This document shows, one piece after another, positions 332-43,159 of a stretch of 64,000 nt of DNA. Each line of letters starts with the position of its first letter. Position 1 is the stretch's first letter. The DNA comes from an uncultured Chitinophagaceae bacterium (GTDB taxonomy: Bacteria; Bacteroidota; Bacteroidia; Chitinophagales; Chitinophagaceae). The stretch is taken from contig CAWIHW010000001.1 of NCBI GenBank assembly GCA_963835995.1, forward strand, positions 1,687,700-1,751,699. Direction: 5' to 3'. Made by a program: the position numbers and the translations under genes. Below the pieces are notes generated by a model, which searched no databases, had not been told where the DNA came from, and saw nothing but the letters and a program-made list of their open reading frames with translations.

Positions 332-1084
332 TTAAAATCCGATAGAATTGCCGCCATCCACAGCGAGCACAACTCCGGTTATATATTTTGCTTCGTCGGA
401 GGCAAGAAATAATGCCGCGTCCGCTACATCCGACGGGTTGCCGAGTGCACCCATTGGCGTGCGGGATAACACTTTCTGTTTTCGTTCCTGGTCATTATCC
501 AGTGCTTTGGCCGACATATCGGTTGCAATAAATCCCGGTGCAATGCAATTCACCCGGATGCCTTTGGGTGAAAGCTCCACCGCCATTGCTCTTGTCATTC
601 CTTCAATCGCGGATTTTGATGCGGTATACGCGATCACCTTGGGCAAACCGTACTGCGATGCCATTGAACTGATATTAACAATGGAGCCATTGCCTTTTTG
701 CAACATGTCTTTCACCACTTCTCTCGAAAGTGCAAAGACGGCATTCACGTTAGTGGTGATAATTCTCTGAAATTCCTCATCACTCACTTCTGTAAATTCT
801 TTCTTCAGGTTAATGCCCGCATTGTTTACCAATATATCTATGTGTCCGTATTTATCTTGTAATTCTTTCACCATCGCCGGGATTTCGTGTATGCGTGCGA
901 GATCAAATGTGACCGGCACACAATGCGGTCCGAGTTCTTGTTGAGTCGCATCTAATTTGCTCTGATCGCGTCCAATAATTATGGTCGTGATATTATTCGC
1001 AACAAATTTGCGCGTTATCGCCAGCCCTATACCAGATCCACCTCCCGTAATGATTGCTATTTTTTTGTTGTCAGATTTTTTCAT
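332..1084 (-). CDS. SDR family NAD(P)-dependent oxidoreductase (KduD/gluconate 5-dehydrogenase-like)
   Basis: TGGGSGIG, NNAG and YTASK motifs. Confidence 0.9.
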   Translation of the reverse strand: MKKSDNKKIAIITGGGSGIGLAITRKFVANNITTIIIGRDQSKLDATQQELGPHCVPVTFDLARIHEIPAMVKELQDKYGHIDILVNNAGINLKKEFTEVSDEEFQRIITTNVNAVFALSREVVKDMLQKGNGSIVNISSMASQYGLPKVIAYTASKSAIEGMTRAMAVELSPKGIRVNCIAPGFIATDMSAKALDNDQERKQKVLSRTPMGALGNPSDVADAALFLASDEAKYITGVVLAVDGGNSIGF

Positions 1085-1168
1085 TTTTTTTCGATAGCCC
1101 CAGGTTTTTTAAAGTTTTTTTGTATCGTGAAATAAGATAAATATGCATTACATAAAATATTAAAGGTG

Positions 1169-2206
1169 TCAGGTCGTAACAGTTTTCTTTTTTTCAGAAG
1201 AAGCACGCACTACTAATTCAGAGCGTAATAAAATGGTATTTGTCGTATGTATGGGCGACGTACCATTCAGGTGATTGATCAAATGACGTGCTGCTACTTC
1301 ACCCATTTCATATCCCGGATAATTGATCGTGGTAAGATTTGGCTCGACAACTGTTGAAACGGGGTCATTATTAAATCCCGCAAAGGCAATCTGCTCCGGA
1401 ATTTTAATACCTGCTTTTTTGAGAGCGAGCATACAACACACAGCGCAGTTGTCGTTGGCCACAAACACAGCATCAGGCAACGGTTTCATTTGCATAATTT
1501 GTTTTGCCGCTTCTCCGCCTGCCTTTTGGCTCAAATCAGTAACGAGTACATAATCATTTTTGAAAGCAATTCTTTTATCCTGCAGCGCCTGTTTGTACCC
1601 AGCCAGCCTGTCGGCATATACCGTGTTCCGGGATTGCGCTGTAATGTGTGCAATTCTTCTGCATCCCTGTCCTATCAGGTGACTCGTGATCTCATAAGCT
1701 GCTTTCCGGTTGTCGATTAGCACGTTGGTGCAATGTTCGTTTTCTGAAACACGATCAAAAAATATCAGGGGGATAGCCCTGTTAAAAAAAAGGTCGAAAT
1801 GAGAAATGTCGTCCGTGTCATAGGATAGGGAAACGAGCAATCCATCCACACGATTGTTGAACATTGTGCGGGCACAGGCTTGCTCTTTTTTTGTGGATTC
1901 TGATGACTGGCTGATGATAAGATTATAGCCGGCCTGGTTAGCTACACTTTCTATACCGGCAATTACAGTTGACATGAAATAGCTATTTAGCTTCGGCACG
2001 ATTACACCAATGGTATAGGTTCGCGGCTTTCGCAGGTAACTGGCAAAATGATTGGAGCGGTAGCCTAACTGTTCCGCAAGATCTTCGATTTTTTTTCGGG
2101 TTTTTTTACTTACTACCGGATCATTTTTTAACGCACGACTAACCGTTGCGATAGAGATATTCAGTTTCTCCGCGAGATCGTAAATGGTGACTTCTTTTTC
2201 TTTCAT
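1169..2206 (-). CDS. LacI family transcriptional regulator (paralog 1)
   Basis: HTH TIYDLAEKLNISIATVSRAL plus sugar-binding domain; start refined to ATG 2206 (MKEKEVTIYD). Confidence 0.93.
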   Translation of the reverse strand: MKEKEVTIYDLAEKLNISIATVSRALKNDPVVSKKTRKKIEDLAEQLGYRSNHFASYLRKPRTYTIGVIVPKLNSYFMSTVIAGIESVANQAGYNLIISQSSESTKKEQACARTMFNNRVDGLLVSLSYDTDDISHFDLFFNRAIPLIFFDRVSENEHCTNVLIDNRKAAYEITSHLIGQGCRRIAHITAQSRNTVYADRLAGYKQALQDKRIAFKNDYVLVTDLSQKAGGEAAKQIMQMKPLPDAVFVANDNCAVCCMLALKKAGIKIPEQIAFAGFNNDPVSTVVEPNLTTINYPGYEMGEVAARHLINHLNGTSPIHTTNTILLRSELVVRASSEKKKTVTT

Positions 2207-2271
2207 AATACGCCTTACTTTATAAATTCGCTTAAAGTTAGGTCGTTCATTTTGTATAATCACCTTTGCCA

Positions 2272-3303
2272 TTACGATCCTTTTTTTAGAGATGATTTTC
2301 GTATAATCAATTCGGTTCGTACGATGATTGTATTGGTGTGATGCATGTTACTTATTCCCTTTAAATGGTTGATAAGGTTTCTCGCTGCGATTTCTCCCAT
2401 CTCGAGCCCGGGATAGTTAATAGTAGTCAGCGACGGCTCAATGAGTTTGCAGATCGCATCGTTATTAAATCCCACTATCGCGATATCTTCCGGTATATTC
2501 AGGCCGTTTTCCCTGAGCGTACGCATACAAACAGCAGCCACAAAATCATTTGTTATGAATGCACCATCCGGCAGCGGTTTCATTTTCATGATCTGCATAG
2601 CGGCATCAATCCCGGCTCTTTCACTCAGGTCATTTATGATCAATAACTTTTCATCGTATGTAATGCCATGATCGAATAATGCATCCTGGTAACCTTTGTG
2701 TCGTTGCGAATAGACATTTCTTTTCAGGTTAGACGTCACATGCACAATTCTTTTGCATCCTTGCTCTATCAGGTGGTTAGTGGCCTGGTAACCGCACTTG
2801 GCGTTATCAATAATTACCACTGTATTGTTATTGGCTTGCTCTACGCGGTCAAAAAACATCACGGGAACCCCTTTATCTATATACGGCTTGTAATGATCAA
2901 GGTTGGGTGTATCGAATGCGAGTGAAGCGATTAACCCGTCTACTCTTTTATGGAAGAGGTTTTTTGCATTGGCTTTTTCTTTTGTATAGCTCTCTGAGGA
3001 GTGAGCGATAATCAGGTCATAACCAGCGTCAGCAGTTACCTTTTCTACGCCCGCCAGCACAGAGGTTATAAAGTTACTGTCGAGCTCATGAACGATAATT
3101 CCGATTGTATTTGTCTGTTTTTGACGGAGATTACGGGCGAAATGATTGGTACGATAACCCATTTCTTCGGCCAGTTCAAATATTTTTTTCTTCGTCTTCT
3201 TATTTACAACCGGGTCATCTTTTAAGGCCCTGCTTACTGTGGCGATAGATATGTTGAGCGCAGTCGCAATGTCGTAAATGGTAACTTCTTTCTGCTTTAT
3301 CAT
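2272..3303 (-). CDS. LacI family transcriptional regulator (paralog 2)
   Basis: HTH TIYDIATALNISIATVSRAL plus periplasmic-binding-like domain. Confidence 0.95.
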   Translation of the reverse strand: MIKQKEVTIYDIATALNISIATVSRALKDDPVVNKKTKKKIFELAEEMGYRTNHFARNLRQKQTNTIGIIVHELDSNFITSVLAGVEKVTADAGYDLIIAHSSESYTKEKANAKNLFHKRVDGLIASLAFDTPNLDHYKPYIDKGVPVMFFDRVEQANNNTVVIIDNAKCGYQATNHLIEQGCKRIVHVTSNLKRNVYSQRHKGYQDALFDHGITYDEKLLIINDLSERAGIDAAMQIMKMKPLPDGAFITNDFVAAVCMRTLRENGLNIPEDIAIVGFNNDAICKLIEPSLTTINYPGLEMGEIAARNLINHLKGISNMHHTNTIIVRTELIIRKSSLKKGS

Positions 3304-3317
3304 TACAATCGTTTACA
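3304..3317. promoter_or_regulatory. Putative LacI operator adjacent to the lacI-2 start codon (TACAATCGTTTACA)
   Basis: 12/14 match to TGTAATCGTTTACA; directly abuts the ATG. Confidence 0.55.
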
Positions 3318-3371
3318 TGGGCTTTAACGCATGTAAAGCTATATAAAAAAAATTTTTTTATGTAAAAAAAA

Positions 3372-3385
3372 TGTAATCGTTTACA
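3372..3385. promoter_or_regulatory. Putative LacI operator TGTAATCGTTTACA in the divergent lacI/susC promoter region
   Basis: Near-palindrome with central CG, the typical LacI/CcpA operator shape. Confidence 0.7.
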
Positions 3386-3527
3386 ATTTTTAAAAAAAAA
3401 TCCTACTTTAGCATAACGAATGTTAACGATTGGATTGTTTCACTAATCAATATTGACTTGATATGTTCCCTGCTAAAAGCGATTTTTTCTTCAATACTTC
3501 ATGATAATGTCGTGATAGCACTTGCTA

Positions 3528-3541
3528 TGCAAACGATAGCA
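3528..3541. promoter_or_regulatory. Putative secondary LacI operator TGCAAACGATAGCA upstream of susC
   Basis: Same TG..A.CG.T..CA symmetry. Confidence 0.45.
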
Positions 3542-3611
3542 GTGATGCCTTTAAAAACATCCCTTAACACAGGTTTTTAAATACACTCTATAATTTTTTA
3601 AATGATTGCTT

Positions 3612-6600
3612 ATGATAGTTACTTATCCGCCGCGTACATCTTCAGCTACCCGGCTTCTTTTTAAACAACTGATAAAAAATACCATTTTATGTGCAATCGC
3701 GCTATCGGCCGGTATGTCATTACTTGCACAACAGAACAAATCTAATATTACGATAAAAGGTATTATTCGAAATGACAATTCCGTCGCGATCGGCCATGCA
3801 TCGGTCATTGTGAAGGGCACAAATACAGGAACCTCCAGCAACGATGAAGGTGAGTTTGAGATCACTGCGCCGTCAGATGCAACACTGGTCGTTTCTTATG
3901 TAGGTTATGAATCGAAGGAAATTAAGGTAAATGGAAGGAAATCGATTTCGGTAGTATTGAACCAATCTGACAAATCACTCGAACAGGTAGTAGTTATTGG
4001 GTATGGTACGCAGCGCAAGGAAGCTATAACGGGTTCCGTTTCCTCTATTAGTGGAGAGAAGCTTAATCAGAATCCTTCGTCTAATATTTCGAACGCGTTG
4101 CAAGGACGTTTGCCAGGGGTGCAGATATCGCAAACATCAACTCAACCGGGATCTACTATGCAAATTCTCATACGCGGCCAGCGTTCGTTATCCGCCAGTA
4201 ATGCCCCTCTGATTGTGCTGGACGGTATTCCTTTTTCAGGTTCTTTCAGCGATATTAATCCACAGGAAGTTAAGAGTATCAGTGTTTTGAAAGATGCATC
4301 AGCAACCGCTATTTACGGTTCACGCGGTGCCAATGGTGTAATATTGATAACCACTAATAGTGGAAGAGTAGGACAAAAACCACAAATCAGCTACAATAGT
4401 TATGTAGGTGTACACAAACTCTGGGCGCCTTTTCCAATGATGAACGGGCCCGAATTTGATACACTTCGTAAGGCAGCCGGCATATACACAAACGGTCCTT
4501 CAGAATCCGACGATGTAAATACCAATTGGCAAAAACTTTTTTACAGGCCTTCTGCTCCTGTTACTAATCAAACTGTATCGGTTTCCGGCGGCACTGAAAA
4601 GGGTAGCTATCACTTCGGGATAGCTTATTACGATGATCAATCCCTGATCCCTACACAGGATTTCAAGCGCTTTTCACTTAACAGCGGTATCGACCAGGGT
4701 GTAGGTAAGTATGTGCGTATTGGTTTTACTACCAATACAGACTATAATGTTTCACAAGGCTCTCAGGTGGGGTTGTACAATATTTTGAGCATGTCGCCTC
4801 TCGCCAGCCCATATAATGCTGATGGGTCATTGAGACAAAGCATACAAATGCCTCTAGACAATGATTGGAATGAGACAAGATATATTGTTGATAGCTTGAA
4901 AAACCAATGGCTAAACCCGATCAAAACACTTGGAACATACAATAACCTGTTCGGAGAATTGAATATCCCGGGCGTTCCCGGACTAAAATACCGCGTCAAT
5001 GTTGGCTTAAACTACAGTACGACTGACAACGATAGTTATACCGGAACAGGTATAACCAGCACCAATGCAACGACTCCTTCTGTTGCCACTATCATTCATT
5101 CTGTGACGCTCAACAAGACAATTGAAAACCTGCTGACCTACGACCGCACATTTTCCGGAAAGCATCATGTGAATCTTACTGCATTGTATTCGGCTGAGCA
5201 GGATAATTACAACAGTTCGGATATTTCGGCCCAGGGCGTTCCAAACGATCAGTTTCAATTCTATAACCTGGGGCAGGCCCTTGGTCAAATTACAATCAAT
5301 CCCAACTACCAAAGCTACACGCAGAGCGGCCTCGAATCGTGGATGGGGCGTGCCATCTATGAATTTTCCGATCGCTATATGCTAACGGCTATCGTTCGGT
5401 CTGATGGATCTTCCATATTGGCGCCAGGTCATCAATGGCATACCTATCCTGCGGTGTCCGCCGGATGGAATATTGCCAATGAATCATTTATGAAGAACAT
5501 TACACTTATAAATGAATTGAAGCTTCGTGTGGGATATGGACAAACTTCCAACCAGGCAGTTGCACCTTATTCTACCCTCGGACAATTAAGTACCAGCCCT
5601 TATAACTTTGGCCCCAGTAATGATGTTGTGGGGTATTATGTATCACAACTCCCAAATCCCAATTTAGGATGGGAATATTCGAAAACGTGGAACTATGGAT
5701 TGGATTTTTCGCTCTTGAACCATCGGCTTTCAGGTACTATAGAATATTACATCACAAAAACAAATGATCTTCTGCTGGGCGTTTCTTTACCTGTGACTTC
5801 GGGAGTAAGCAGCTATACGGCTAACATTGGAAATACCCAAAACAAAGGTGTGGAACTTTCACTCAACGGTACAATCCTGGATAATAAAAACGGTTGGACG
5901 TGGACAGCCGGTGTCAATTTTTATGGCAACCGTAATAAGCTCGTGGCACTTGCTTCGGGTCAGACCCAGAATATTGGCAACAACTGGTTCGTTGGACACC
6001 CGCTCAATGTGATTTACGACTACAAGAAGATAGGACTTTGGCAAGCAAAAGATTCGTACCTGAGTACTTTGGAACCTGGAGGAAATGTTGGAATGATCAA
6101 GGTGGAATATACGGGAGCATATAACGCAGATGGTACGCCTGCAAGAGCAATAGGTCCTGCAGATGAGCAAATACAGAATTTAGATCCTAAATTCCAGGGT
6201 GGTTTCAATACTACGGTAACGTACAAAGATTTTGACTTTACTGCTGTTGGACTCTTCCAAAGCGGGGGTATGCTGGTGAGCACTTTGTATTCAGCATCAG
6301 GTTACCTTAATTTATTATCAGGACGCAGAAACAATGTAAAGGTAGATTACTGGACACCTTCGAACACAAATGCCAAATATCCGAAACCGGGAGGCATAAC
6401 GAGTGGCGACAATCCAAAGTACGGAAGCACCCTGGGTTACTTTGACGCATCGTATCTAAAGGTGCAAAGTATAGCTCTCGGATACAGCTTTACTCATATG
6501 AACTGGTTAAGAAATTCAGGCATCAGTAGGCTGCGGCTTTACTTCCTGGTGGAAAATCCATTTGTGATGTTCTCGCCTTATTACAGCCAGACAGGCATGG

Positions 6601-6734
6601 ATCCTCAGACCAATTCGTATGGAGATCAAAATGCCGCAGTACCACTGTCATCCAGTTTGCACCGTATTTTGACGATTGGTACAAACACGCCGGAAACACG
6701 AAACTACCTTCTTGGCCTCAACTTGACATTCTAA
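3612..6734 (+). CDS. susC: SusC/RagA family TonB-dependent outer-membrane transporter
   Basis: CarboxypepD-like N-domain, plug with VVVIGYGT, LKDASATAIYGSRGANGVILITT, C-terminal F. Confidence 0.97.
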   Translation: MIVTYPPRTSSATRLLFKQLIKNTILCAIALSAGMSLLAQQNKSNITIKGIIRNDNSVAIGHASVIVKGTNTGTSSNDEGEFEITAPSDATLVVSYVGYESKEIKVNGRKSISVVLNQSDKSLEQVVVIGYGTQRKEAITGSVSSISGEKLNQNPSSNISNALQGRLPGVQISQTSTQPGSTMQILIRGQRSLSASNAPLIVLDGIPFSGSFSDINPQEVKSISVLKDASATAIYGSRGANGVILITTNSGRVGQKPQISYNSYVGVHKLWAPFPMMNGPEFDTLRKAAGIYTNGPSESDDVNTNWQKLFYRPSAPVTNQTVSVSGGTEKGSYHFGIAYYDDQSLIPTQDFKRFSLNSGIDQGVGKYVRIGFTTNTDYNVSQGSQVGLYNILSMSPLASPYNADGSLRQSIQMPLDNDWNETRYIVDSLKNQWLNPIKTLGTYNNLFGELNIPGVPGLKYRVNVGLNYSTTDNDSYTGTGITSTNATTPSVATIIHSVTLNKTIENLLTYDRTFSGKHHVNLTALYSAEQDNYNSSDISAQGVPNDQFQFYNLGQALGQITINPNYQSYTQSGLESWMGRAIYEFSDRYMLTAIVRSDGSSILAPGHQWHTYPAVSAGWNIANESFMKNITLINELKLRVGYGQTSNQAVAPYSTLGQLSTSPYNFGPSNDVVGYYVSQLPNPNLGWEYSKTWNYGLDFSLLNHRLSGTIEYYITKTNDLLLGVSLPVTSGVSSYTANIGNTQNKGVELSLNGTILDNKNGWTWTAGVNFYGNRNKLVALASGQTQNIGNNWFVGHPLNVIYDYKKIGLWQAKDSYLSTLEPGGNVGMIKVEYTGAYNADGTPARAIGPADEQIQNLDPKFQGGFNTTVTYKDFDFTAVGLFQSGGMLVSTLYSASGYLNLLSGRRNNVKVDYWTPSNTNAKYPKPGGITSGDNPKYGSTLGYFDASYLKVQSIALGYSFTHMNWLRNSGISRLRLYFLVENPFVMFSPYYSQTGMDPQTNSYGDQNAAVPLSSSLHRILTIGTNTPETRNYLLGLNLTF

Positions 6735-6747
6735 AAATCATATAATC

Positions 6748-8709
6748 ATGAGAACTATAAATAAAAAGAACAATGTGACAGCAGTAGTAACGGTGATGGT
6801 TATGCTGCTATTTACGTCGTGTTCCAAACTTCTGAAAGAAACACCGCGTAGTATCTTTACACCTGATTTTTTCAGTACTCCTGCAGGTGTAACAGGGGGA
6901 ATAACGTCCTTATACGCGAACCTGCGTTATATTTACGGAAACGCTTATTACTATAACACTGGTGAAACAGGTACCGATGAAGTAACGTACGCCCAAAGCG
7001 CGGATCAAAATTTTAAGGTCATGGACCTTTCAGGGCAGGGAGACATTAGTTCTCAGACCAGCCGTTCTGATGTGTTGTGGAATAATTCCTTTGGCGCTAT
7101 TAATACCGCAAGCGGCGTGATTCAAAATGGTTCCGCAGCGGGGGTTTCGCCTTCACTGGTTGCTGAGGCCAGGTTTTTTCGGGCATTTTATTACTTTCAA
7201 CTGGTTCAGACATTCGGAGGTGTTCCGCTGGATTTGGGTGCGGGGGTACTAAAGTTTAATACGAATCCGGTAGCCATATCTACACGAAACACGGTACCGG
7301 ATGTTTATACTAAATGTATATTCCCTGATCTTGACACTGCATTAAATGAACTGCCGGTAAATCCACGAGTAACCGGTGGTGTAACGCAGAACGTTGCACG
7401 CCTTTATTTGGCCCAGGCTTACCTGACATATGCATGGTGGTTACTAAATCCAAATAATATTCCTACTTATCCGGCAGCCGATCGAACTGATCCGGATGGT
7501 CAGACTTCTCAATATTATTTTCAACAGGCTTATAACCTTGCGATTACCGCTATTGACGATCCGGGCCCCTATGGACTGATGCCAACATTCTACGACTTAC
7601 ATAATGGGGCCAATGATTATAATAAAGAAGAAATGCTTTACGCTGATCACACACAGTTGAATGAACTTTCTAATGGGGCCAGTCTCACTTATGGCGGCGG
7701 CGGCGGCGAAGATAACTTTGCCGGGTGGATGATGACGTGGAATTATACTGTCCTTAGAAGCAGTACTTCCAGCTCTACCTGGACTCCGGTAAGTTCTGTT
7801 CAGCGTGCGGCAACCCAACCTCTTGGACGCCCATGGACACGTATGTGCCCTACGATCGGCGCAATCGAAAACACATTTGCCGACAAAACCAATGATTCCC
7901 GCTATGATGGTACTTTTGTTACTACCTACCATGGTAACTGGAATTTAAACGGAACTGGTATCAGTCAGACTACATTATATAATGCAAATAACCTTCCGGT
8001 TCAACCAGGTGATGCTATATTGACATTCCTCGACCAGCCAGATCCTTCAATTAGCTATCCTTCTGGTGCGGGTAACAGTAATATAGGAGCAGGTACTTTG
8101 CCAGGAAGATCTGATTTCGTAGTGGACCCTGATGGTATCAGCCGTGTAGTATATCCAGGGCTTTGGAAACTTGGTGAATATCGCACCGATAATAATGGCA
8201 CTTTGGGTCAACCGAATGCAGCGAGTACCCGTCCTTTTGTTATTGCTTATTTCTCTGAGTTTTATTTTATCGGAGCGGAAGCGGCGGTCATGGGTGCTAC
8301 CACCCAAGCCGGCCAAAGTGCGAGAGATCTTATCAATGTTATTCGTGCACGAGCGGGCATGTGGGACTATGACAACAATGGAGATTCGACCTTAATACAA
8401 GATAATAGCGCAGCGATGATCGCCGCAACGCCTGCAACGATAACTATTGACTACATTTTGGCAGAACGTTCCCGAGAATATTACGGAGATGGCAGACGCT
8501 GGCTCGATTTAGTACGTACGCAGCAATGGGCAAATCTTGCTTCGTCTTACGAAATTGCGGGACCTAATTACGGGGATCATACGGCACAAACTGTAACGCG
8601 CGATATTCAGCCCTATCTTTATCTACGCCCCATTCCGATAGGCCAGCTAAATAATATGCAGGCGGATTCAACAACCTTGTCGGGATATCAAAACCCCTCA
8701 TATCAGTAG
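6748..8709 (+). CDS. susD: SusD/RagB family glycan-binding lipoprotein
   Basis: Lipobox FTSC, EARFFRAFYYFQLVQTFGGVP, ERSREYYGDGRRWLDLVR; directly downstream of susC. Confidence 0.96.
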   Translation: MRTINKKNNVTAVVTVMVMLLFTSCSKLLKETPRSIFTPDFFSTPAGVTGGITSLYANLRYIYGNAYYYNTGETGTDEVTYAQSADQNFKVMDLSGQGDISSQTSRSDVLWNNSFGAINTASGVIQNGSAAGVSPSLVAEARFFRAFYYFQLVQTFGGVPLDLGAGVLKFNTNPVAISTRNTVPDVYTKCIFPDLDTALNELPVNPRVTGGVTQNVARLYLAQAYLTYAWWLLNPNNIPTYPAADRTDPDGQTSQYYFQQAYNLAITAIDDPGPYGLMPTFYDLHNGANDYNKEEMLYADHTQLNELSNGASLTYGGGGGEDNFAGWMMTWNYTVLRSSTSSSTWTPVSSVQRAATQPLGRPWTRMCPTIGAIENTFADKTNDSRYDGTFVTTYHGNWNLNGTGISQTTLYNANNLPVQPGDAILTFLDQPDPSISYPSGAGNSNIGAGTLPGRSDFVVDPDGISRVVYPGLWKLGEYRTDNNGTLGQPNAASTRPFVIAYFSEFYFIGAEAAVMGATTQAGQSARDLINVIRARAGMWDYDNNGDSTLIQDNSAAMIAATPATITIDYILAERSREYYGDGRRWLDLVRTQQWANLASSYEIAGPNYGDHTAQTVTRDIQPYLYLRPIPIGQLNNMQADSTTLSGYQNPSYQ

Positions 8710-33955: not shown

Positions 33956-34666
33956 TTAATCCCTGCTTCTGCCCTGATAAATCAGAATATATTGAATTAA
34001 CAATGCAATGGACGCAAGCGCAGCAATCACATAAGTTAAAGCTGCCCACTTCAATGCATCTTTAGCTTTTTCATGTTCCTCCGGCGAAGTGATGTGTGAC
34101 GAATCCAGCCACTTCAGTGCCCGCGCAGATGCGTCAAACTCAACCGGCAGTGTAATAACCGAAAATAATGTAGACACGGCAAATAAAATAATTCCGATGA
34201 GCAAAATAGTAGGATTACCACCGCCAAAGGTGAACAGGCCAAGGCCAATCAAAATAATCCATTGTGCAAGACTACTGCTTATTTGGACGAAGGGTACAAG
34301 CGCACTTCTAAGCGTTAGCATGGAATAGGCAGTAGCATGCTGAACAGCATGGCCACATTCATGTGCAGCCACTGCCGCTGCAGAGATATTTCTTCCTTCG
34401 TATACCTTGGGACTGAGATTTACTGTTTTTTGGGAAGGATCGTAATGGTCACTTAAAAATCCTGGGACTGAGATCACACTTACATCATAGATTCCATTAT
34501 CATGAAGCATTTTTTCTGCTACTTCCTTCCCGCTTAAGCCGCTTGAAGTAGGTATTTTCCCATATTCCGAAAACTTGCTTTTCAGCCTGAATTGCACGAT
34601 CATTCCCGCGAACATAAAAACAATCGAGATCAGGAAAATTCCAGGCATCGTCGAAAAATAATTCAT
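33956..34666 (-). CDS. Neutral zinc metallopeptidase (YugP-like, membrane)
   Basis: DHYDP, AAHECGHAVQH (HExxH), LPVEFDAS. Confidence 0.9.
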   Translation of the reverse strand: MNYFSTMPGIFLISIVFMFAGMIVQFRLKSKFSEYGKIPTSSGLSGKEVAEKMLHDNGIYDVSVISVPGFLSDHYDPSQKTVNLSPKVYEGRNISAAAVAAHECGHAVQHATAYSMLTLRSALVPFVQISSSLAQWIILIGLGLFTFGGGNPTILLIGIILFAVSTLFSVITLPVEFDASARALKWLDSSHITSPEEHEKAKDALKWAALTYVIAALASIALLIQYILIYQGRSRD

Positions 34667-34920
34667 ACAAAATTACAGATTCGGGACTTGTCGGAGGGCG
34701 AAATCTGGCGGTATAACGTATCAGCATTTTTAAAGTTCTGGTTTCAAAGACAGTTGATAAGAAAAATTTGCCGGGACAAAGAACTTTTTCTAAATTAGAG
34801 TTCTCCCCGATTTAAGCAGGCCAAAATAAATACTCTCTGATCTCACCGGAAGTTCCAGTCATTGCTAATGTATGAATCATGGCACCCGGAAATTTCTTTT
34901 CAAAAAAATAAAGTTTATTT

Positions 34921-35295
34921 ATGACAAAAATCAAAAAAGTTGTGGCCAGCTTTATCGGAATTTTTCTGATAGGATCTTCTACCAATGCTGCAAATGTGGC
35001 CACCCCCAAAAACAAAGTGGAATCGAAAATTAACAACATTATCAAAGCATTGCATGCAAAGAAAATTCAGAACGAGCAATCCAAAAGGATGTTCGAATAC
35101 CTGGAGAAAAATCACAAACTGAATGCTATCGAAATGAATAAACCCCCGGCGCCGGAGGAGGGTGAAATGAATTCGGGTAATTGGGACAACTGGAACAACT
35201 GGAGTAACTGGGATACGTGGAATAACTGGAGTAACTGGGACACATGGAATAACTGGAGTAATTGGGATACATGGAACAACTGGAGTAATTATTAA
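34921..35295 (+). CDS. Trp/Asn-rich repeat peptide, candidate multi-cyclophane RiPP precursor
   Basis: Signal-like N-terminus (TNA-A), helical leader, C-terminal core of 12 W-x-x triplets; repeat divergence is almost all synonymous, supporting real coding. Confidence 0.8.
35182..35289 (+). repeat. 4 x 27-nt tandem repeat encoding WD(N/T)WNNWSN
   Basis: Units at 35182, 35209, 35236 and 35263. Confidence 0.95.
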
Positions 35296-35357
35296 TTTGA
35301 TGAGATTTTAAATTGCGCGTAACTAACGGTGACGCGTATGCGATATATCAAAAATAA

Positions 35358-35382
35358 AAGAGGGAGAACATTTCTCCCTCTT
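35358..35382 (-). terminator. Intrinsic terminator after atpA (possibly bidirectional)
   Basis: AAGAGGGAGAA-CAT-TTCTCCCTCTT 11-bp stem with a T-rich tail on the minus strand. Confidence 0.75.
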
Positions 35383-35405
35383 CAGTGTTCTTTTAGCTAT
35401 TATTT

Positions 35406-36986
35406 TTATCGCTTAAACTGGTTCATTATGCCTTTGGCCAGTTCTGTCATCTTCTTAAGACCATCTTCCGGTAAATTCCCTTTTTTAAACTCGGCGAGAA
35501 TTTCAGGATGTTTGTTTTCCATTTCCAGGAGGAATTGTTCTTCAAAAGCGCGGATATTCTTTACCGGAACACTGCTGAGCAATCCGTTGGTGCCCAGGTA
35601 AATGATCGCGATTTGTTTTTCAACAGCGTATGGAGTAAACTGGGGTTGCTTTAATATTTCCACATTCCTTGCCCCTTTGTCCAACACTGATTTTGTAGCG
35701 GCATCGAGGTCTCCACCGAACTTTGAAAACGCTTCCATCTCGCGATAGAGCGCCTGGTCAAGTTTAAGCGTACCAGCCACCTTTTTCATGGACTTGATCT
35801 GGGCATTACCACCTACACGACTTACGGATATTCCTACGTTGATGGCAGGGCGTATACCTGAGTTGAATAAATTATTTTCCAAAAATATCTGTCCGTCGGT
35901 AATAGAGATCACGTTGGTAGGAATGTATGCCGATACATCTCCGGCTTGTGTTTCTATAATTGGAAGTGCAGTTAATGAACCACCTCCTTTTACCATTTGT
36001 CTGATATTGTCAGGGAGATCATTCATCTTTTGCGCAATCTCATCTTTCGAAATGATTTTTGCGGCTCTTTCCAGCAGGCGGCTGTGCAGGTAAAATACGT
36101 CACCGGGGTATGCCTCACGTCCGGGAGGTCTTCTTAATAAAAGTGAAACTTCACGATAAGCCACAGCCTGTTTACTCAAGTCATCATAAACAATCAATGC
36201 ATCGCGACCTGTATCACGGAAAAACTCACCAATAGCAGCTCCCGCAAATGGTGCATAAAACTGTAGCGGCGCGGGGTCGGAGGCCGACGCCGCAACAATA
36301 GTTGTATAAACCATTGCACCGTTATCTTCCAATACTTTCATCACATTGGCAATAGTAGAAGCTTTCTGGCCAATTGCTACGTAAATGCAATAAACAGGCC
36401 TACCCGCTTTGTAGAATTCTTTTTGATTAATTATGGTATCGATACAAATGGCACTTTTACCGGTTTGGCGATCGCCAATTACCAACTCTCTTTGCCCGCG
36501 ACCGATGGGGATCATCGCATCAATAGCTTTGATACCGGTTTGCAGCGGAGTCTTTACCGGCTCCCTGAAGATAACACCCGGAGCTTTGCGCTCAAGAGGC
36601 ATTTCGAAAAGTTCCCCTGTAATAGGACCTTTCCCGTCAATGGGCTCTCCGAGAGTATTAATCACTCTGCCCGCCAACCCATCGCCTACTTTTATAGACG
36701 CAATCTGGCCGGTGCGGCGAACAGTGCCACCTTCTTTAATATCCCCGCTATCGCCCATAAGTACCACACCTACATTATCTTCTTCAAGATTTAATGCAAT
36801 AGCTCTGACGCCATTTTCAAATTCCACTAGTTCGCCTGAGCTAACATTATTCAGGCCATACACTCTGGCAATCCCATCGCCTATCTGAAGTACACTTCCT
36901 ACTTCTTCAAGATTTGCTTCCGCATTAAAATTGGTAAGCTGGCTTCTGAGTATTGCTGATATTTCGTCTGGTTTTATATCCGCCAT
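35406..36986 (-). CDS. atpA: F0F1 ATP synthase subunit alpha
   Basis: [31 protein letters not shown]; start refined to ATG 36986. Confidence 0.98.
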
Positions 36987-37009
36987 AAAATGGTTTATTT
37001 TTCGAGGTG

Positions 37010-37041
37010 CAAATGTAAAATAAGATGGGGGTAGTAACAAA
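37010..37041 (-). promoter_or_regulatory. Dedicated atpA promoter (-33 TTTG, -7 TACATTTG)
   Basis: TTTG at 37041-38, 20-nt spacer, TAnnTTTG at 37017-10. Confidence 0.7.
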
Positions 37042-37190
37042 TAAGGTTTGCTGGTAATTTTATCCACAAATAATCAATTTGATATTATAAATTTGTAGAT
37101 GAAGTTTCAAGTGTAAGACTTCCAAAACCCTTTACATCTTTGCATAAATGATCCCGACTACCGATTTCTTTTACCTCCAAATATTTGCAT

Positions 37191-40100
37191 ATGAGAAAAC
37201 GTATACTTACTGCCCTTGGGATTATCACTTGTTTTTTTGCCTTTCTGATTTTTTTGCATAAAAATGTAATTAAAGATCATCCTTTGAAAAGGTTCAGTGC
37301 CACGCCCATTCAAATATCGGATGAGGATGGTGGTGAGGGTGAGGATGGAATTCTCGCTGCACAAAAAATGGAGTTTGAACTCACGAAGGATATTTCATTG
37401 GGCTATGTTCCAAAATACAGACTTGTGAATGCCTATCTTGGTCTGATTAAAAACCGGAATCTGAATACACCAACCAATATTAATGCACTGACCTGGGCGG
37501 AGCGGGGGCCGAATACAGACACTGTTGGGCCAAGTAATGGAAATACACGTGCTGATAATGGTGTAGCCAGCGGTAGAATGAGGGCCATCTGGGTTGATCT
37601 TTCTGATCCATCTTATCATACGGTATGGATTGGAGGAATAGACGGAGGACTTTGGAAAACGACGGATATTTCTGCCTCGCCCGCAACATGGACTCCAATC
37701 AATGATTTTTTCTCAGATCTGGCAATAAGCAGTATTTGCCAGGATCCGCTTGGAACGATGGATACGATGTATTTTGGTACAGGGGAAAAAACATATAATG
37801 TAGACGCTGTTCGTGGGGGTGGTATTTGGAAAAGTACCGATCATGGTGCCACCTGGAACTTGCTTCCTTCCACTACTTCATTTTATAATGTTTCTAAAAT
37901 TATCTGTGATGCTTTGGGCAATGTATATGTGGCTACAATTGGTAACAATAAAGGAATACAGCGTTCCAAAGACGGAGGTGCTACGTGGACGAATATTACA
38001 CCCTCCGGTCTTAATACTGCAGTAACAGATATGAAACTCAGCAGCTATGGGCGAATGCATATCGTATGTGGGTATTACAATGGACCAAATGCTGGTTACA
38101 GATATACCGACAGGCCTGATATCGTTACAGCATCAGGCTGGACTGCGCCTACTACTCCTTTTCCAAATGTTAAGTATAATACGGAACTTGCCGTTGGCCC
38201 GGATTCTGTGCTATATGCGCTGGTAGCAGATTCTGTTTACCAGACACCACAGATTTATAAATCGACCGATAGCGGTGCTGTCTGGACCGCAACCACCACA
38301 TCGCCACCAGCCTCAGGGGGTACCAACGATTTGAGTAGCGGGCAGGCCTGGTATAACATGGCTATTGCAATGGATCCGGCAGACGATAAGAATGTATTGG
38401 CAGGTGGACTTAATTGCTATCTCTCTATCGATGGCGGGGATACTTGGACCCAGGTTTCCAAATGGATAGGCACTTCGTCCAGCTATGTGCATGCCGATCA
38501 ACAAACTGCTGTATGGAATGCAAACCAGGTATTGGTCGGAAGTGACGGCGGGATTTTTTATTCGTCCGACGGCGGCGCTACCTTTCATGATCGTAACACA
38601 GGACTGAGGATAAGGCAACTATACTCTTGTGCTATCCATCCTACTGCCAGCAATTATTTTCTTGGCGGTGCACAGGATAATGGAGTAAACCAATTCAAAA
38701 CAGCAGGACTTGCGGGTATAACTGAGGTTACAGGTGGTGATGGAGCATTTGTGCATATTGACCAGGATGAACCTCAATATCAATTCGGCTCTTATGTTTA
38801 CAATCAGTATAGAAGAAGTACCGATGGGGGTAATAGCTGGACCTATATAAATTACTCTAATAGTGTGGGTCAATTTGTAAATCCTACAGATTATGACAAT
38901 GTGAACAATAAAATGTATTGTGGAGGATCTTCCAATCAATATATACGATGGGAGAATCCCCAGACCGGAAGCCTCTTTACACCTGTTACTATTTCTGCGT
39001 TTTCAGGTGCGGTGAGAAGTGTAACGGTATCTCCCTACACATCCAACAGGGTCTTTTTTGGTACAAACTCCGGTAAGGTAGTACAGGTTGATAATGCGAA
39101 TTCTGCTTCTCCTACAGCTACCAATATTACAGGGTCAGGAATGTCGGCAGCCTCGATCCTTTGCATAGCAGTTGGCACCAACGATAGTAATTTGTTGGCA
39201 GTATTTCCTAATTACGGAGTAAGCGGACATGTTTGGGTTACTTCTACAAAAGGGGGTAGTTCCGGGTGGACCAATATTACGGGTAATTTGCCTGACATAC
39301 CTGTTCGCTGGGCCATGTTTTATCCTGACGATAATACAAAAGCAATCATAGCTACTGAAATGGGAGTGTATGAAACTTCTGACATTAATGGATCTTCCAC
39401 AGTATGGACAAGAGATGCAAGTTTTCCGATCGTGCGAACAGATATGCTGAAATATAGAAAAAGTGACGGAACCGTTGCGGCAGCAACACATGGGCGTGGA
39501 TTATGGACAGCCAATATTCCCCTTACCACACCGTACATTCGTTTTGCGTCCAACTATAATGAGCAAACGGAAAGTACTACAACCACATCAGGTTGTCGAG
39601 CTTACACCGACTATACGGTAAATATGACGATTGATGCTGCACCTATTGGAGATGCAACCGTCACGTTAAGCGTATCGCCAACAAGTACCGCAAAGCAGGG
39701 AGCAGATTTTGATTTTACCACGAATGGAAATTTTACTTCTCCTTCTAGCACTTTGACTTTTCCCGACGGATCCACCACTTCTGAGCCCGTGACCATTCGT
39801 GTGTATGACGATGCTGAAGTGGAGAATTCTGAAAGTTTCACACTCGCCTACAATGTATCCGGGTCTACTAATGCCCTGGCGGCTCCAAGCAGTCCGAGCT
39901 ATACATTCACGATAGATGATAATGATGTTGCTCCTAATTCTACAGGGCCTACCAATACATATACGGTTGGTTCCGCTGTATATTATTTGAATGCTGGCGC
40001 CGAAGCCCCTCCTTTCAATGCAGTACTTCCGAGCCAGCGTAGCCAGATGCTTTACCGGGCCAGTGAATTAACAGGAGCCGGAATAACCGCCGGAATCATA

Positions 40101-41516
40101 AACAGCATTGGTATTTATATGACCAAACAAAGTACGAGAGCTTATCAGAATATTCAGATAAAAATGGCTACCACGTCACTTACCAATCTTGTTACGAGCG
40201 ATGTAATTAGTCCCGTCAATACTTCCACCGTGGCCACATTATCATCGTATAATACGGTAAATGGTTGGAATACATTTAACCTTGACGCACCGTTTTCCTG
40301 GGATGGCACCAGCAATATTGTCATAGAAATTTGTTATGATAACGGCACCGGCGATACTGGTGACCTTTTTGATAAAACATTTGGCTATTCGGATGGAAGC
40401 GGTGCATCCGATGGAAATATCTTATGGCAGGATAGTATTAATTGCAGCGGAACATTCACTCAAGCAGATGCAAATTATTTTTCTAATGGTATTAAGCCGG
40501 AATTGCAATTAAATGTTACAACATACGGCAACCTGATTGCCACTGCCGGTTCGCATACGGAAGATGTAGCGGATACGGGTAATTACTATTATTTTACCGG
40601 CAATAATATTATGAATAGCATCGCGGGTGCGAGTGCCGATCTGGGATGTGTAAGTTCAGATTTGTCGGGTACTGGCAATACGTGGCAACCATTTATAGCG
40701 GGCATGAGGTCGGAAAAGGTCTTTACCATTACACCTACTACTAATTCCGGTGCATCTTATACTGTCGGATTGTATTTCACAACTGCTGAGCTCGGAGGGT
40801 TTGATCCGGCAACACTTAAGATCGCGAAAACGGACGCGGCAACACTGGCGGGGGCAGATGGCACTAATACGATTATCGCGCCGACTAACTACACTCCTTA
40901 TGGAAGTGGTTACTTGTTCACTGCTTCGTTCTCAGGATTCTCTCAGTTTTTCCTCGTTGATCCTTCCGTTGTGCTGCCCATTACATTGCTTTCGTTTAAT
41001 GGTCACCTCAATAATAGCAGTATATTCCTGCAGTGGCAAACCAGTTCAGAGCATGGCTCTAAATATTTTGATATTGAAAAGTCTGCTGATGGTGTAAACT
41101 TCTATAATATTGGTTCGAAGCCCGCCGCAGGTATTAGCAATTCTACGTTGAAATATAGTTATACCGACATGCAGCCGGCCGAATTGAATTATTACAGGTT
41201 AAAGTTCGTAGATATCGATGGCAGGTTTATTTATAGCTCTACCATACTTATTAAGGATCAATCGGTTTCGCAACGGTTATGGATAGACGAAAACCCGTTT
41301 CGCAGCAGCATTACAATTCATCTTGCCAGGTTGCCGCAGCAAGTAGTGAAAACAGAATTGGTAACCATAAACGGGTCCAGAATACTCACCAAAGAATTTT
41401 CGAACACGACGTTGCTGAACCTCGATGTTTCTGGTCTGAACTTATCGAGAGGTGTGTATATATTGAGAACCGTAATCGGTAATAAGATTTATACAAACAA
41501 ACTAATCAAACAATAA
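37191..41516 (+). CDS. Large secreted modular protein: BNR/sortilin-like beta-propellers, Calx-beta domain, beta-sandwich, T9SS CTD
   Basis: SxDxGxTW repeats, VYDDAEVENSESFTL, LPITLLSF linker, LSRGVYILR CTD; start refined to ATG 37191. Confidence 0.85.
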   Translation: MRKRILTALGIITCFFAFLIFLHKNVIKDHPLKRFSATPIQISDEDGGEGEDGILAAQKMEFELTKDISLGYVPKYRLVNAYLGLIKNRNLNTPTNINALTWAERGPNTDTVGPSNGNTRADNGVASGRMRAIWVDLSDPSYHTVWIGGIDGGLWKTTDISASPATWTPINDFFSDLAISSICQDPLGTMDTMYFGTGEKTYNVDAVRGGGIWKSTDHGATWNLLPSTTSFYNVSKIICDALGNVYVATIGNNKGIQRSKDGGATWTNITPSGLNTAVTDMKLSSYGRMHIVCGYYNGPNAGYRYTDRPDIVTASGWTAPTTPFPNVKYNTELAVGPDSVLYALVADSVYQTPQIYKSTDSGAVWTATTTSPPASGGTNDLSSGQAWYNMAIAMDPADDKNVLAGGLNCYLSIDGGDTWTQVSKWIGTSSSYVHADQQTAVWNANQVLVGSDGGIFYSSDGGATFHDRNTGLRIRQLYSCAIHPTASNYFLGGAQDNGVNQFKTAGLAGITEVTGGDGAFVHIDQDEPQYQFGSYVYNQYRRSTDGGNSWTYINYSNSVGQFVNPTDYDNVNNKMYCGGSSNQYIRWENPQTGSLFTPVTISAFSGAVRSVTVSPYTSNRVFFGTNSGKVVQVDNANSASPTATNITGSGMSAASILCIAVGTNDSNLLAVFPNYGVSGHVWVTSTKGGSSGWTNITGNLPDIPVRWAMFYPDDNTKAIIATEMGVYETSDINGSSTVWTRDASFPIVRTDMLKYRKSDGTVAAATHGRGLWTANIPLTTPYIRFASNYNEQTESTTTTSGCRAYTDYTVNMTIDAAPIGDATVTLSVSPTSTAKQGADFDFTTNGNFTSPSSTLTFPDGSTTSEPVTIRVYDDAEVENSESFTLAYNVSGSTNALAAPSSPSYTFTIDDNDVAPNSTGPTNTYTVGSAVYYLNAGAEAPPFNAVLPSQRSQMLYRASELTGAGITAGIINSIGIYMTKQSTRAYQNIQIKMATTSLTNLVTSDVISPVNTSTVATLSSYNTVNGWNTFNLDAPFSWDGTSNIVIEICYDNGTGDTGDLFDKTFGYSDGSGASDGNILWQDSINCSGTFTQADANYFSNGIKPELQLNVTTYGNLIATAGSHTEDVADTGNYYYFTGNNIMNSIAGASADLGCVSSDLSGTGNTWQPFIAGMRSEKVFTITPTTNSGASYTVGLYFTTAELGGFDPATLKIAKTDAATLAGADGTNTIIAPTNYTPYGSGYLFTASFSGFSQFFLVDPSVVLPITLLSFNGHLNNSSIFLQWQTSSEHGSKYFDIEKSADGVNFYNIGSKPAAGISNSTLKYSYTDMQPAELNYYRLKFVDIDGRFIYSSTILIKDQSVSQRLWIDENPFRSSITIHLARLPQQVVKTELVTINGSRILTKEFSNTTLLNLDVSGLNLSRGVYILRTVIGNKIYTNKLIKQ

Positions 41517-41524
41517 TTAATTTT

Positions 41525-41549
41525 AAAGGCCGGGCTTCCGGCCTTTTTT
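41525..41549 (+). terminator. Intrinsic terminator
   Basis: AAAGGCCGG-GCTT-CCGGCCTTT followed by a T-run. Confidence 0.8.
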
Positions 41550-41566
41550 GTAAATTATTATGGCTG

Positions 41567-42064
41567 ATGAAAAGACTCAAAAGATCACTTTTTTATTTTT
41601 TCATTTCTATTCATTTGTTCGCATGTGCTCAATCGAAGAGCGTGATCAAAAATGCATGCGCCACCTATACGATTCATATACCTGGCAATATTCCTGTAGA
41701 TCGCAATGGCAATGAAATCCCGCTTAGAGATACCGTTTTGATAATTTATATTGAAACAACATCACCAGACATAACCTGGAATAGGGCATGGCTGAATGGT
41801 AAAACTTACTCGGTTATACCAACGCTCATTGATTCCAATTACGTTGAAGCAGGTATAAAGCAAATCAACAATGAAAAATTGGTCATTAAAAGTTCAGGCA
41901 ATGATAAGTTGTGGCGGCTGCAACTGATTCCTGCTGAAAAATTCGAATTCGCTCCTGCAGAGATACAGCGCGGTGAATTACTCATTTCGGGAACATATAA
42001 GAACAGGAAAATATTGCAACGAATTAATTCAATGACCGAATTAACAGGTATCCCTACGCCCTAA
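41567..42064 (+). CDS. Hypothetical lipoprotein
   Basis: Basic N-terminus, hydrophobic stretch, LFAC lipobox. Confidence 0.65.
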   Translation: MKRLKRSLFYFFISIHLFACAQSKSVIKNACATYTIHIPGNIPVDRNGNEIPLRDTVLIIYIETTSPDITWNRAWLNGKTYSVIPTLIDSNYVEAGIKQINNEKLVIKSSGNDKLWRLQLIPAEKFEFAPAEIQRGELLISGTYKNRKILQRINSMTELTGIPTP

Positions 42065-42083
42065 ACATAGAAAACAGGAAAGA

Positions 42084-42647
42084 TTACCTGAGCTTGTGGA
42101 TATAATCGTTGTTGGCGAATTGTTTTTTAACATCATTCAAATCGCGTAATATACTTGCATCTACGAGTTTGCCATCCATTTCCAAAACAAAACCGCCTAT
42201 TAGGTTTTTATCCACTTTCGCTTCGAGCTGAATATCTGTTATGGAAGCGGCGTCCTGTATTTTTTTAATGAACAGGTTCTTTATGTTGTCAGACACCGGC
42301 AAAGCTGTAGTCAGCTTCACTTTGTGGATTCCTTTGAAACTATTGTATTGGTCAATGAAGGAATTGATTATTTCAGGCAGGTTAGACTCACGCCCCTTCA
42401 CACAAAGAAGCCTTATAAAGTTCAACGCAAGGTCAGATATCTTTCCCTGGGCTACCGCAGTGACGATCTTTATTTTTTTATCATGTTTAATGATCGGACT
42501 GTCCAGCATCAATACAAAATCTCTGCTCACTTTGCAAATAGTTTGCAGGGTAAGAATATCCAGGTGTATTGCGTCCAGTCGATTGAACTCGATGGCGAGA
42601 TCTATCAGGCTTTTGGCGTATCTTTCTGCTAACCGGTGATTCTGCAT
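42084..42647 (-). CDS. atpH: ATP synthase F1 subunit delta
   Basis: LAERYAKSL, LIGGFVL, DASI. Confidence 0.95.
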   Translation of the reverse strand: MQNHRLAERYAKSLIDLAIEFNRLDAIHLDILTLQTICKVSRDFVLMLDSPIIKHDKKIKIVTAVAQGKISDLALNFIRLLCVKGRESNLPEIINSFIDQYNSFKGIHKVKLTTALPVSDNIKNLFIKKIQDAASITDIQLEAKVDKNLIGGFVLEMDGKLVDASILRDLNDVKKQFANNDYIHKLR

Positions 42648-42664
42648 TTCTTACTTCGGCTTTA

Positions 42665-43159
42665 TTAGTTCAGGTCAATTTTTTCTGCGAGCTGATTGAT
42701 GTATTTTTCCTGCTCTTCCTTGCTGGCCAGTTCGCGGTGCAGTATTTTTTCACTTACTTCAATTACGAGTTTGCCTACCTGATTTTTCAATTCAATAATA
42801 GAAGCCATCTTCTGCTGATTGATTACCGCCTGGGCATCTGCAATCATTTTATTGCCTACCACCCTGGCTTCTTCGCGGGCATCATTGATAATCTTATCGC
42901 GAATTTCTTTTGCTTCTCTCATCATTTGTGATCTCTCTTCACGCGCCTTATTCAGTAATGCTTCGTTTTCATTCTTCAGGTTCGCCATTTCCTGCTTTAC
43001 CCTGTCTGCCGTTGCGATAGACTCATTGATATTCCTTTCTCTTTCTGCAAGCGAATCCAATATGGGCTTCCAGGCAAATCTTTTTAAGATGAGAAATACT
43101 ATGACAAACACCAGCAGTGTCCAGATGATAAGACCAAAGGAGGGAGTAAGTAAATCCAT
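42665..43159 (-). CDS. atpF: ATP synthase F0 subunit b
   Basis: N-terminal TM (GLIIWTLLVF..KRFAWKPI) and coiled coil. Confidence 0.96.
   Translation of the reverse strand: MDLLTPSFGLIIWTLLVFVIVFLILKRFAWKPILDSLAERERNINESIATADRVKQEMANLKNENEALLNKAREERSQMMREAKEIRDKIINDAREEARVVGNKMIADAQAVINQQKMASIIELKNQVGKLVIEVSEKILHRELASKEEQEKYINQLAEKIDLN

Follow-up and report, generated by a model that had tools for sequence, protein, structure and literature searches.

A remotely encoded tryptophan-repeat peptide gene in Chitinophagaceae: a probable triceptide precursor of the GrrA/OscA kind

RiPP precursors are not always encoded next to the enzyme that modifies them; the prochlorosins, for example, are scattered away from their single maturase, ProcM. 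The triceptides, which carry three-residue cyclophanes, are a second group of interest here, and a catalogue of some 3900 putative pathways exists for them (PMC11499958). OscB-type Trp-to-Asn cyclophanes have been published (Nguyen et al., 2020, as cited in the review PMC11002830), and OscB is described as joining Trp-C7 to the Cβ of Asn or Asp at i+2 (PMC11002830). The minviopeptin pathway (MicA/MicB/MicC) is a triceptide pathway with a radical SAM cyclophane synthase and the α-ketoglutarate non-haem iron enzyme MicC (PDB 9VKM); MicC carries out oxidative backbone cleavage at Gly, by which a C-terminal follower is removed and an amide is left (PMC12912966). ChlB (PDB 9GM3) is a solved radical SAM enzyme that installs several three-residue cyclophanes per peptide (Ruel et al., 2025, as cited in PMC12636437). 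A literature search for papers on cyclophanes from Bacteroidota found none in the library searched, and Bacteroidota gene clusters with a MicC homologue and a radical SAM gene have been noted (PMC12912966).

The gene discussed here lies in 64 kb of DNA from an uncultured Chitinophagaceae bacterium; this whole stretch is termed the window. The features of the locus are as follows.

34761..34821, plus strand: conserved 60-nt upstream element, a candidate promoter and start of the 5′ UTR, found with an nhmmer profile
34921..35295, plus strand: precursor peptide gene, ATG start, 124 codons and stop
34921..34989, plus strand: signal-peptide-like N-terminus (aa 1–23), with a K-rich start, a hydrophobic stretch and a TNA/A site
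34990..35181, plus strand: leader (aa 24–87), with predicted helices at 29–46 and 52–64, a Pro/Glu linker that varies and an N84-x-G86-N87 junction that is invariant
35176–35178, plus strand: G86 codon, at the leader/core junction
35182..35292, plus strand: core of 37 residues, 12 contiguous Trp-x-[Asn/Thr] motifs and a terminal Tyr, candidate cyclophane sites
35358..35382, strand not assigned: G+C-rich hairpin, terminator-like on both strands, with an 11–12 bp stem (a consensus match only)

An initial annotation of this DNA described a 124-aa open reading frame with 12 consecutive Trp-x-x motifs, and the translation reads exactly as it was given there. The 12 Trp residues stand at a strict period of three from W88 to W121 and are followed by Y124. 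Residues 88–123 consist of WDN WNN WSN and then three copies of WDT WNN WSN, with no interruption between triplets, and because the Trp residues are all in register a chance origin of the 12 triplets is ruled out. At the DNA level, Tandem Repeats Finder reports a 27-nt unit repeated 4.2 times with 88% match (35177–35290). The differences between the four 27-nt units are almost all synonymous, and therefore the array has been maintained as protein and there was no recent DNA slippage. Two minus-strand open reading frames of 48–55 aa inside the repeat (35112–35279 and 35126–35272) arise mechanically from the TGG-AAC repeat and do not represent genes. The hairpin sits between the precursor gene and the convergent atpA (35406–37067, minus strand).

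Read by eye, the N-terminus fits the Sec (SPase I) layout of n-, h- and c-regions with small residues at −3 and −1, in that it has MTKIKK, a 12-residue stretch and SSTNA/A; L16, G18 and S19 of this region are invariant within the subfamily. The leader residues that are invariant in the subfamily are E34, I37, A43, L44, S54, K55, E59, Y60, L61, N84, G86 and N87. The window precursor retains every one of them, and the same residues are found in the paralogues encoded in the biosynthetic cassette described below; one of these, P0020, is identical to the window precursor at 38 of 64 leader positions. The dipeptide GN directly precedes the first Trp in all 21 of the 21 subfamily members. The AF2 model is of low confidence (mean pLDDT 44.8 for the whole precursor, about 56 in the leader helices), with the leader helices alone weakly predicted, and thus a solenoid is neither favoured nor disfavoured. 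The window protein has no meaningful Pfam match and no NCBIfam match even at E ≤ 10.

The protein belongs to a family of some size. A search of 5.8 billion proteins returned 33 relatives, 20 of which are 60–80% identical and, where named, come from Chitinophagaceae. When a profile of the 33 was run against 1.84 billion representatives, 200 clusters were matched at E ≤ 1e-3. Most listed family members are 90–130 aa long and begin with a signal-like segment, after which come a helical leader and, at the C-terminus, aromatic residues in a run of period three. In 153/177 wider-family members the first 50 aa contain 10 or more consecutive uncharged residues. A scan of a genome collection, for which a 17-sequence alignment was used, returned five loci, none of them from the window's own genome. 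One relative from a JGI metagenome (P0017, 130 aa) has a repeat that changes frame midway and reads LEQLGYLEHLEQLGYLEHLE; this may have arisen as an error in sequencing or assembly, or the frameshift may be natural.

In 153 members from outside the Chitinophagaceae, with 1440 motifs, the first position is W in 95% and F in 4%, the second is free (N, G, S, D, A, R, P, V), and the third is N in 80%, D in 7%, T in 6% and K in 4%. The Chitinophagaceae subgroup has W at the first position, S, N or D at the second, and N and T at 50% each at the third. As judged from the sequences, a pattern of fixed W, free X2 and N at X3 is what would be expected for Ω1-X2-X3 cyclophane motifs, and an aromatic residue at position 1 with a cross-linkable Cβ at position 3, by which triceptide cores are recognized, is present in all 12 W-x-[N/T] motifs of the window core. 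The initial annotation proposed up to 12 cyclophanes. Nine motifs have Asn at position 3, and the proposal is not supported for the other three, which have Thr, a residue that is not documented as an OscB acceptor in the OscB literature examined. The GrrA/OscA1 precursor model TIGR04260 is matched by 5/104 wider-family members (best E = 3.1e-7) and not by the window protein, and therefore the link to GrrA/OscA is transitive.

The window open reading frame is a real gene under purifying selection. Compared with its 80%-identical orthologue at locus L014, pS is 0.82, which is saturated, versus a pN of 0.10, and over the 37 codons of the core there are 11 synonymous and no nonsynonymous differences. 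A further orthologue (L023) differs from the window gene at 15 nucleotide positions in the core, and all 15 changes are synonymous and none nonsynonymous. The core protein is therefore identical in three genomes. A spurious open reading frame or a decaying pseudogene is ruled out by the pS and pN values and by the synonymous-only changes in the core. Among public sequencing runs there were three matches, all of them soil metagenome DNA, the best of which contains 21% of the words; no RNA runs were among those matched.

In the window, the precursor gene is flanked by a Zn_peptidase_2 gene and atpA. At L014 the order orphan–atpA–BNR protein is kept, with atpA 94% identical, and L023 has the order rhamnosidase–GFO/IDH–MscS–CE2–Zn_peptidase_2–orphan–atpA. 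The Zn_peptidase_2 neighbour was considered as a dedicated leader peptidase and was dropped, as it is absent upstream of the L014 orphan. It should be pointed out that the ATP synthase genes are split in this part of the window (35406–43159): atpA is apart from OSCP and b-subunit-like open reading frames (42084–43159, minus strand), and between them are plus-strand genes for a 1443-aa BNR-like protein (37185–41516) and a 165-aa open reading frame (41567–42064). At L023 the 165-aa open reading frame alone intervenes.

A radical SAM gene immediately follows the precursor gene in 10 distinct relatives with readable flanks: P0028 (L003–L007), P0025 (L001), P0020 (L008), the L009 precursor, P0019 (L010), the L012/L013 precursor, P0033 (L016/17), P0032 (L018), P0027 (L019–21) and P0015 (L022). 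Two neighbouring maturases were scored against TIGR04261, the title of which is ‘cyclophane-forming radical SAM/SPASM peptide maturase GrrM/OscB’, and gave 578.9 and 434.8 bits relative to a cutoff of 310. The genes without an adjacent radical SAM gene, here called orphans, are the window gene, its orthologues (L014/L015, L023/L024) and the gene at L011. The last of these, from a Flavobacteriales MAG (7463–8056), encodes 197 aa, in which some 37 W-x-x units, for the most part WDT and WET, follow one another without a gap; its flanks encode an FkbM methyltransferase and a peroxidase, and there is no radical SAM gene within 1.3 kb downstream.

In Bacteroidota the cassette consists of four genes, which encode in order a 266–286-aa MicC-like protein, the precursor, the radical SAM enzyme and a 2OG-Fe(II) oxygenase of ~180 aa; the pairing of precursor and radical SAM genes is present in L009, L010, L012/13, L019 and L022. 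The cassette around P0020 (at L008) can serve as an example. Its radical SAM protein, P0298, is the one that scores 434.8 bits with TIGR04261, over model positions 1–363 of 363. It has the CX3CX2C radical SAM motif at residues 19–26 and a total of eight Cys, those outside the motif being C109, C324, C328, C334 and C357, and four of them are in the C-terminal region. The Pfam SPASM score is 20.8 bits, just under the cutoff of 21.5. The first protein of the cassette, P0299 (266 aa), is of a type with no Pfam or NCBIfam family, and it matches the MicC structure 9VKM_A over residues 2–251 (E = 8.6e-23). The positions of the H-x-D...H iron triad, as defined for MicC (PMC12912966), are conserved (GLHLDS vs GMHIDN), and NIIHDGSTEG is the same in both. 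The product of the last gene, P0300, resembles bacterial prolyl 4-hydroxylases (P4H-like).

No transporter is conserved in the cassette. The genes for PorV2 and PorU2 are downstream in L008 and L010 and not in L009, and were dropped as cassette members; this pair, which may constitute a second type IX sorting system (L008 3336–9529, L010 12227–18420), is probably linked to the cassette by coincidence. The cassette cores differ in their number of Trp residues, with 4 in P0020 (L008 1156–1458), 9 in P0019 (L010 10001–10345) and 12 at L009 (10001–10375). The remote copy (35182–35292 in the window) has the same 12 motifs in three genomes, which suggests that repeat expansion and contraction are confined to the cassette copy.

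More distant pairs of a W-x-N precursor and a GrrM-type radical SAM enzyme are found repeatedly beside STAND or conflict-system genes (L003–L006, about 735–7100; L016 6022–10134; L018 2–5394; and the 19.5-kb JGI contig of P0025). The conflict genes include nSTAND1-WD40 with SIR2/CHAT/Metallophos, nSTAND1-TPR with TIR, EAD11-TPR, and DO-GTPase1 with GAP1-N1 and an SLFN-type helicase. This may mean that defence-like islands house some of the triceptide pairs.

No maturase is encoded within the window. The initial annotation stated that no radical SAM or P450 gene is present in the 64 kb, and this is correct: tblastn with two GrrM-type maturases as queries detected none, and a motif scan of all stop-to-stop open reading frames of at least 100 aa found a single CxxxCxxC, in a spurious 133-aa antisense open reading frame, and no P450 haem motif. 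By exact-sequence look-up, the window protein and P0020 (the paralogue, of 100 aa) are each placed on one contig of 5,097,100 bp, and P0298, P0299 and P0300, which flank P0020 in L008, are likewise recorded on a 5,097,100-bp contig. Thus, a candidate maturase cassette is present in the window's own 5.1-Mb genome, around P0020. The two-locus layout is also seen in an uncultured Ginsengibacter MAG (GCA_964627765.1), where the cassette (L010) is on contig 41 and the orphan (L023) is on contig 58; this orphan shares the order Zn_peptidase_2–orphan–atpA with the window.

The two loci are tied together by a short sequence. An alignment of the region upstream of the orphan with that upstream of the first cassette gene revealed the pattern AAAAATTTG-N13-ACTTT-N2-3-TAAATT-N6-8-CCCCG-N-TTTAAG-NN-GGC. 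An nhmmer profile was built solely from the three cassette-operon copies (L008, L010 and L009) and run against both strands of the window. It found 34761–34821, about 100 nt 5′ of the ATG, with E = 1.3e-10, and the next best match in the window has E = 3.1; the window thus has a single copy of the cassette element, in front of the orphan, and it is this that links the two loci. The profile also matches a fourth cassette (L022, E = 4e-12), and it detects the element upstream of the orphan orthologues (L014/L015, E = 1e-4; L023/L024, E = 8e-8). The cassette copy precedes the MicC-like gene and not the precursor gene, and therefore the orphan does not simply duplicate what immediately surrounds the cassette precursor. 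The element has been retained at saturating synonymous divergence, which argues for a function, most simply co-regulation.

The primary-sigma promoters of Bacteroidetes have TTTG at −33, about 20 nt, and TAnnTT at −7. The element presumably fits this layout, as we take 34767–34770 to be the −33 TTTG, with a 20-nt spacer and the −7-like TAAATTAG at 34791–34798. From its sequence the element is a candidate promoter, and it might equally well be an operator or a 5′-UTR element. Rfam models run on 34600–35450 gave sub-threshold chance matches only.

We consider it likely that the orphan is a functional precursor of the triceptide type, encoded remotely and matured in trans. Transcription would start from the promoter-like element that the orphan has in common with the biosynthetic cassette, and the GrrM/OscB-family maturase of the cassette would then bind the conserved two-helix leader in the cytoplasm. 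Trp-to-Cβ cross-links would be formed at the nine W-x-N sites and possibly at the three W-x-T sites, and the MicC-like and P4H-like 2-oxoglutarate oxygenases may further tailor the peptide. As the cassette has no conserved transporter, the Sec-type N-terminus is taken as the probable export route; with such a signal on the substrate of a cytoplasmic Fe-S enzyme, modification would have to precede export. The orphan may even be the principal substrate in this lineage, given that the cassette cores vary and the 12-motif core of the orphan is invariant. A radical SAM/SPASM maturase acting in trans had been proposed in the initial annotation, and the proposal gains support from the GrrM/OscB maturases that adjoin the relatives, from the one beside the paralogue in the same genome and from the shared element. 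The lack of any candidate maturase in the genome or beside homologues had been named there as the finding that would speak against it; P0298 is in the genome and 10 relatives have an adjacent radical SAM gene.

Other readings of the orphan have to be weighed. It might have been duplicated from a RiPP precursor and now function independently of the maturase as an unmodified, secreted Trp/Asn-repeat peptide, e.g. a structural, amyloid or solenoid-like surface peptide. The signal-like N-terminus and the distance from any maturase are in keeping with this, the extreme conservation of the core also fits a structural role, and the Flavobacteriales MAG offers a second orphan with an even longer repeat. 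However, the leader residues that the orphan and the cassette precursors have in common would be of no use to a repeat that is simply secreted, and the orphan retains all of them and has the same upstream element as the cassette. In addition, the fold of the core is not confidently predicted (pLDDT < 50), and every relative that is not an orphan is linked to a radical SAM gene. An unmodified peptide is therefore judged improbable. Modification by a different enzyme encoded elsewhere in the genome, such as a P450 that forms Trp-Trp links (an alternative raised in the initial annotation) or another radical SAM enzyme, has in its favour that 64 kb of the 5.1-Mb genome were readable. Yet there is no P450 gene beside the relatives in the loci examined, where the conserved partner is always a GrrM-type radical SAM gene; nothing was found to support the P450 or Trp-Trp alternative, and we regard modification by such an enzyme as a very slight prospect.

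There is also the question of whether the orphan regulates the pathway and does not supply its product. It could be a leader-bearing decoy that ties up the maturase, or it could serve the cassette product as a peptide for immunity or signalling. The shared promoter element implies co-regulation, which would suit such a role, and so would the far shorter core (four Trp) of the cassette copy in this genome. But the strongest constraint is on the core, with no nonsynonymous change across three genomes, and not on the leader alone, and in other Chitinophagaceae (L009, L022) it is the cassette that encodes a precursor of this 12-motif form. We find this role quite improbable, and return to the orphan as a precursor that is probably matured in trans.

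If the orphan is such a precursor, a more specific picture can be drawn, which is put forward tentatively and which we think rather unlikely as a whole: that the MicC-like oxygenase acts at Gly86, before the first Trp, and that the maturase also links Trp to the Cβ of Thr. Cleavage at Gly86 is suggested by the fact that it is the sole conserved Gly and that the precursor has no follower. A marine relative (P0027) has no Gly before the core and does have a follower that contains Gly. Cleavage of Gly86 by the MicC-like enzyme is speculative, and if true, the leader would be removed oxidatively and not by a protease; the leader would end in a C-terminal amide and the core would have an N-terminal glyoxylyl cap. 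Linking to Thr would give a rod of 12 contiguous cyclophanes without spacer residues. Taken with the shared promoter element, the pathway would be a split, regulon-organized triceptide pathway in which the main product comes from the remote gene and not from the cassette copy.

For natural-product chemistry the gene represents an uncharacterized triceptide target from Bacteroidota, with room for 9 to 12 adjacent cyclophanes in its 37-residue core, and a candidate maturase and two candidate tailoring oxygenases can be named in the same genome. Genome mining centred on clusters would miss the best-conserved substrate of the pathway, because its gene is outside the cluster. Remote precursors of this sort can be sought by means of the short upstream element that the two loci share.

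No new kind of system is uncovered by the window gene. The initial annotation spoke of an undescribed system, and here it went too far: TIGR04261 is a curated family, OscB cyclophanes are published (PMC11002830), and MicC-homologue clusters of Bacteroidota were on record (PMC12912966). On sequence grounds, the gene is best placed as a divergent Bacteroidota branch of the known GrrA/OscA–GrrM/OscB triceptide kind. As in OscA/OscB and GrrA/GrrM, the maturase, here the one beside the paralogue, passes TIGR04261, and NCBI names its orthologue GrrM/OscB. In the precursor, as in the wider family with its few TIGR04260 matches, a repeat core comes after a signal-like start and a helical leader, and this core consists of contiguous W-x-N motifs of the type that OscB cross-links. 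Unlike OscA/GrrA, the window protein has no TIGR04260 match, its host is of the Bacteroidota (Chitinophagaceae), and Thr is at position 3 in half of the subfamily motifs. The presence of MicC-like and P4H-like oxygenases in the cassette, and a window copy encoded away from the maturase, are further differences from OscA/OscB.

The cassette resembles the minviopeptin pathway in that a radical SAM enzyme is paired with an α-ketoglutarate non-haem iron enzyme of the MicC type. It differs in that it has no ADP-ribosyltransferase and that the motifs are W-x-N/T, versus YSK/HAS/FTK in minviopeptin. In contrast to the MicC substrate, the window precursor has no follower, and its sole conserved Gly (G86) is just before the core. 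The cassette radical SAM enzyme is detectably homologous to ChlB (E = 1.9e-22), but the relation is distant, and ChlB is fused to an α-KG-HExxH hydroxylase and acts on Tyr/His motifs.

With the prochlorosins and ProcM the window gene shares a distant location, a conserved leader and a proposed maturation in trans. It departs from them in chemistry (cyclophane vs lanthionine) and in having a single remote gene, which is connected to the cassette by the upstream element that both have. What is new here is the remote and better-conserved precursor copy, the shared upstream element and the specific W-x-N/T core.
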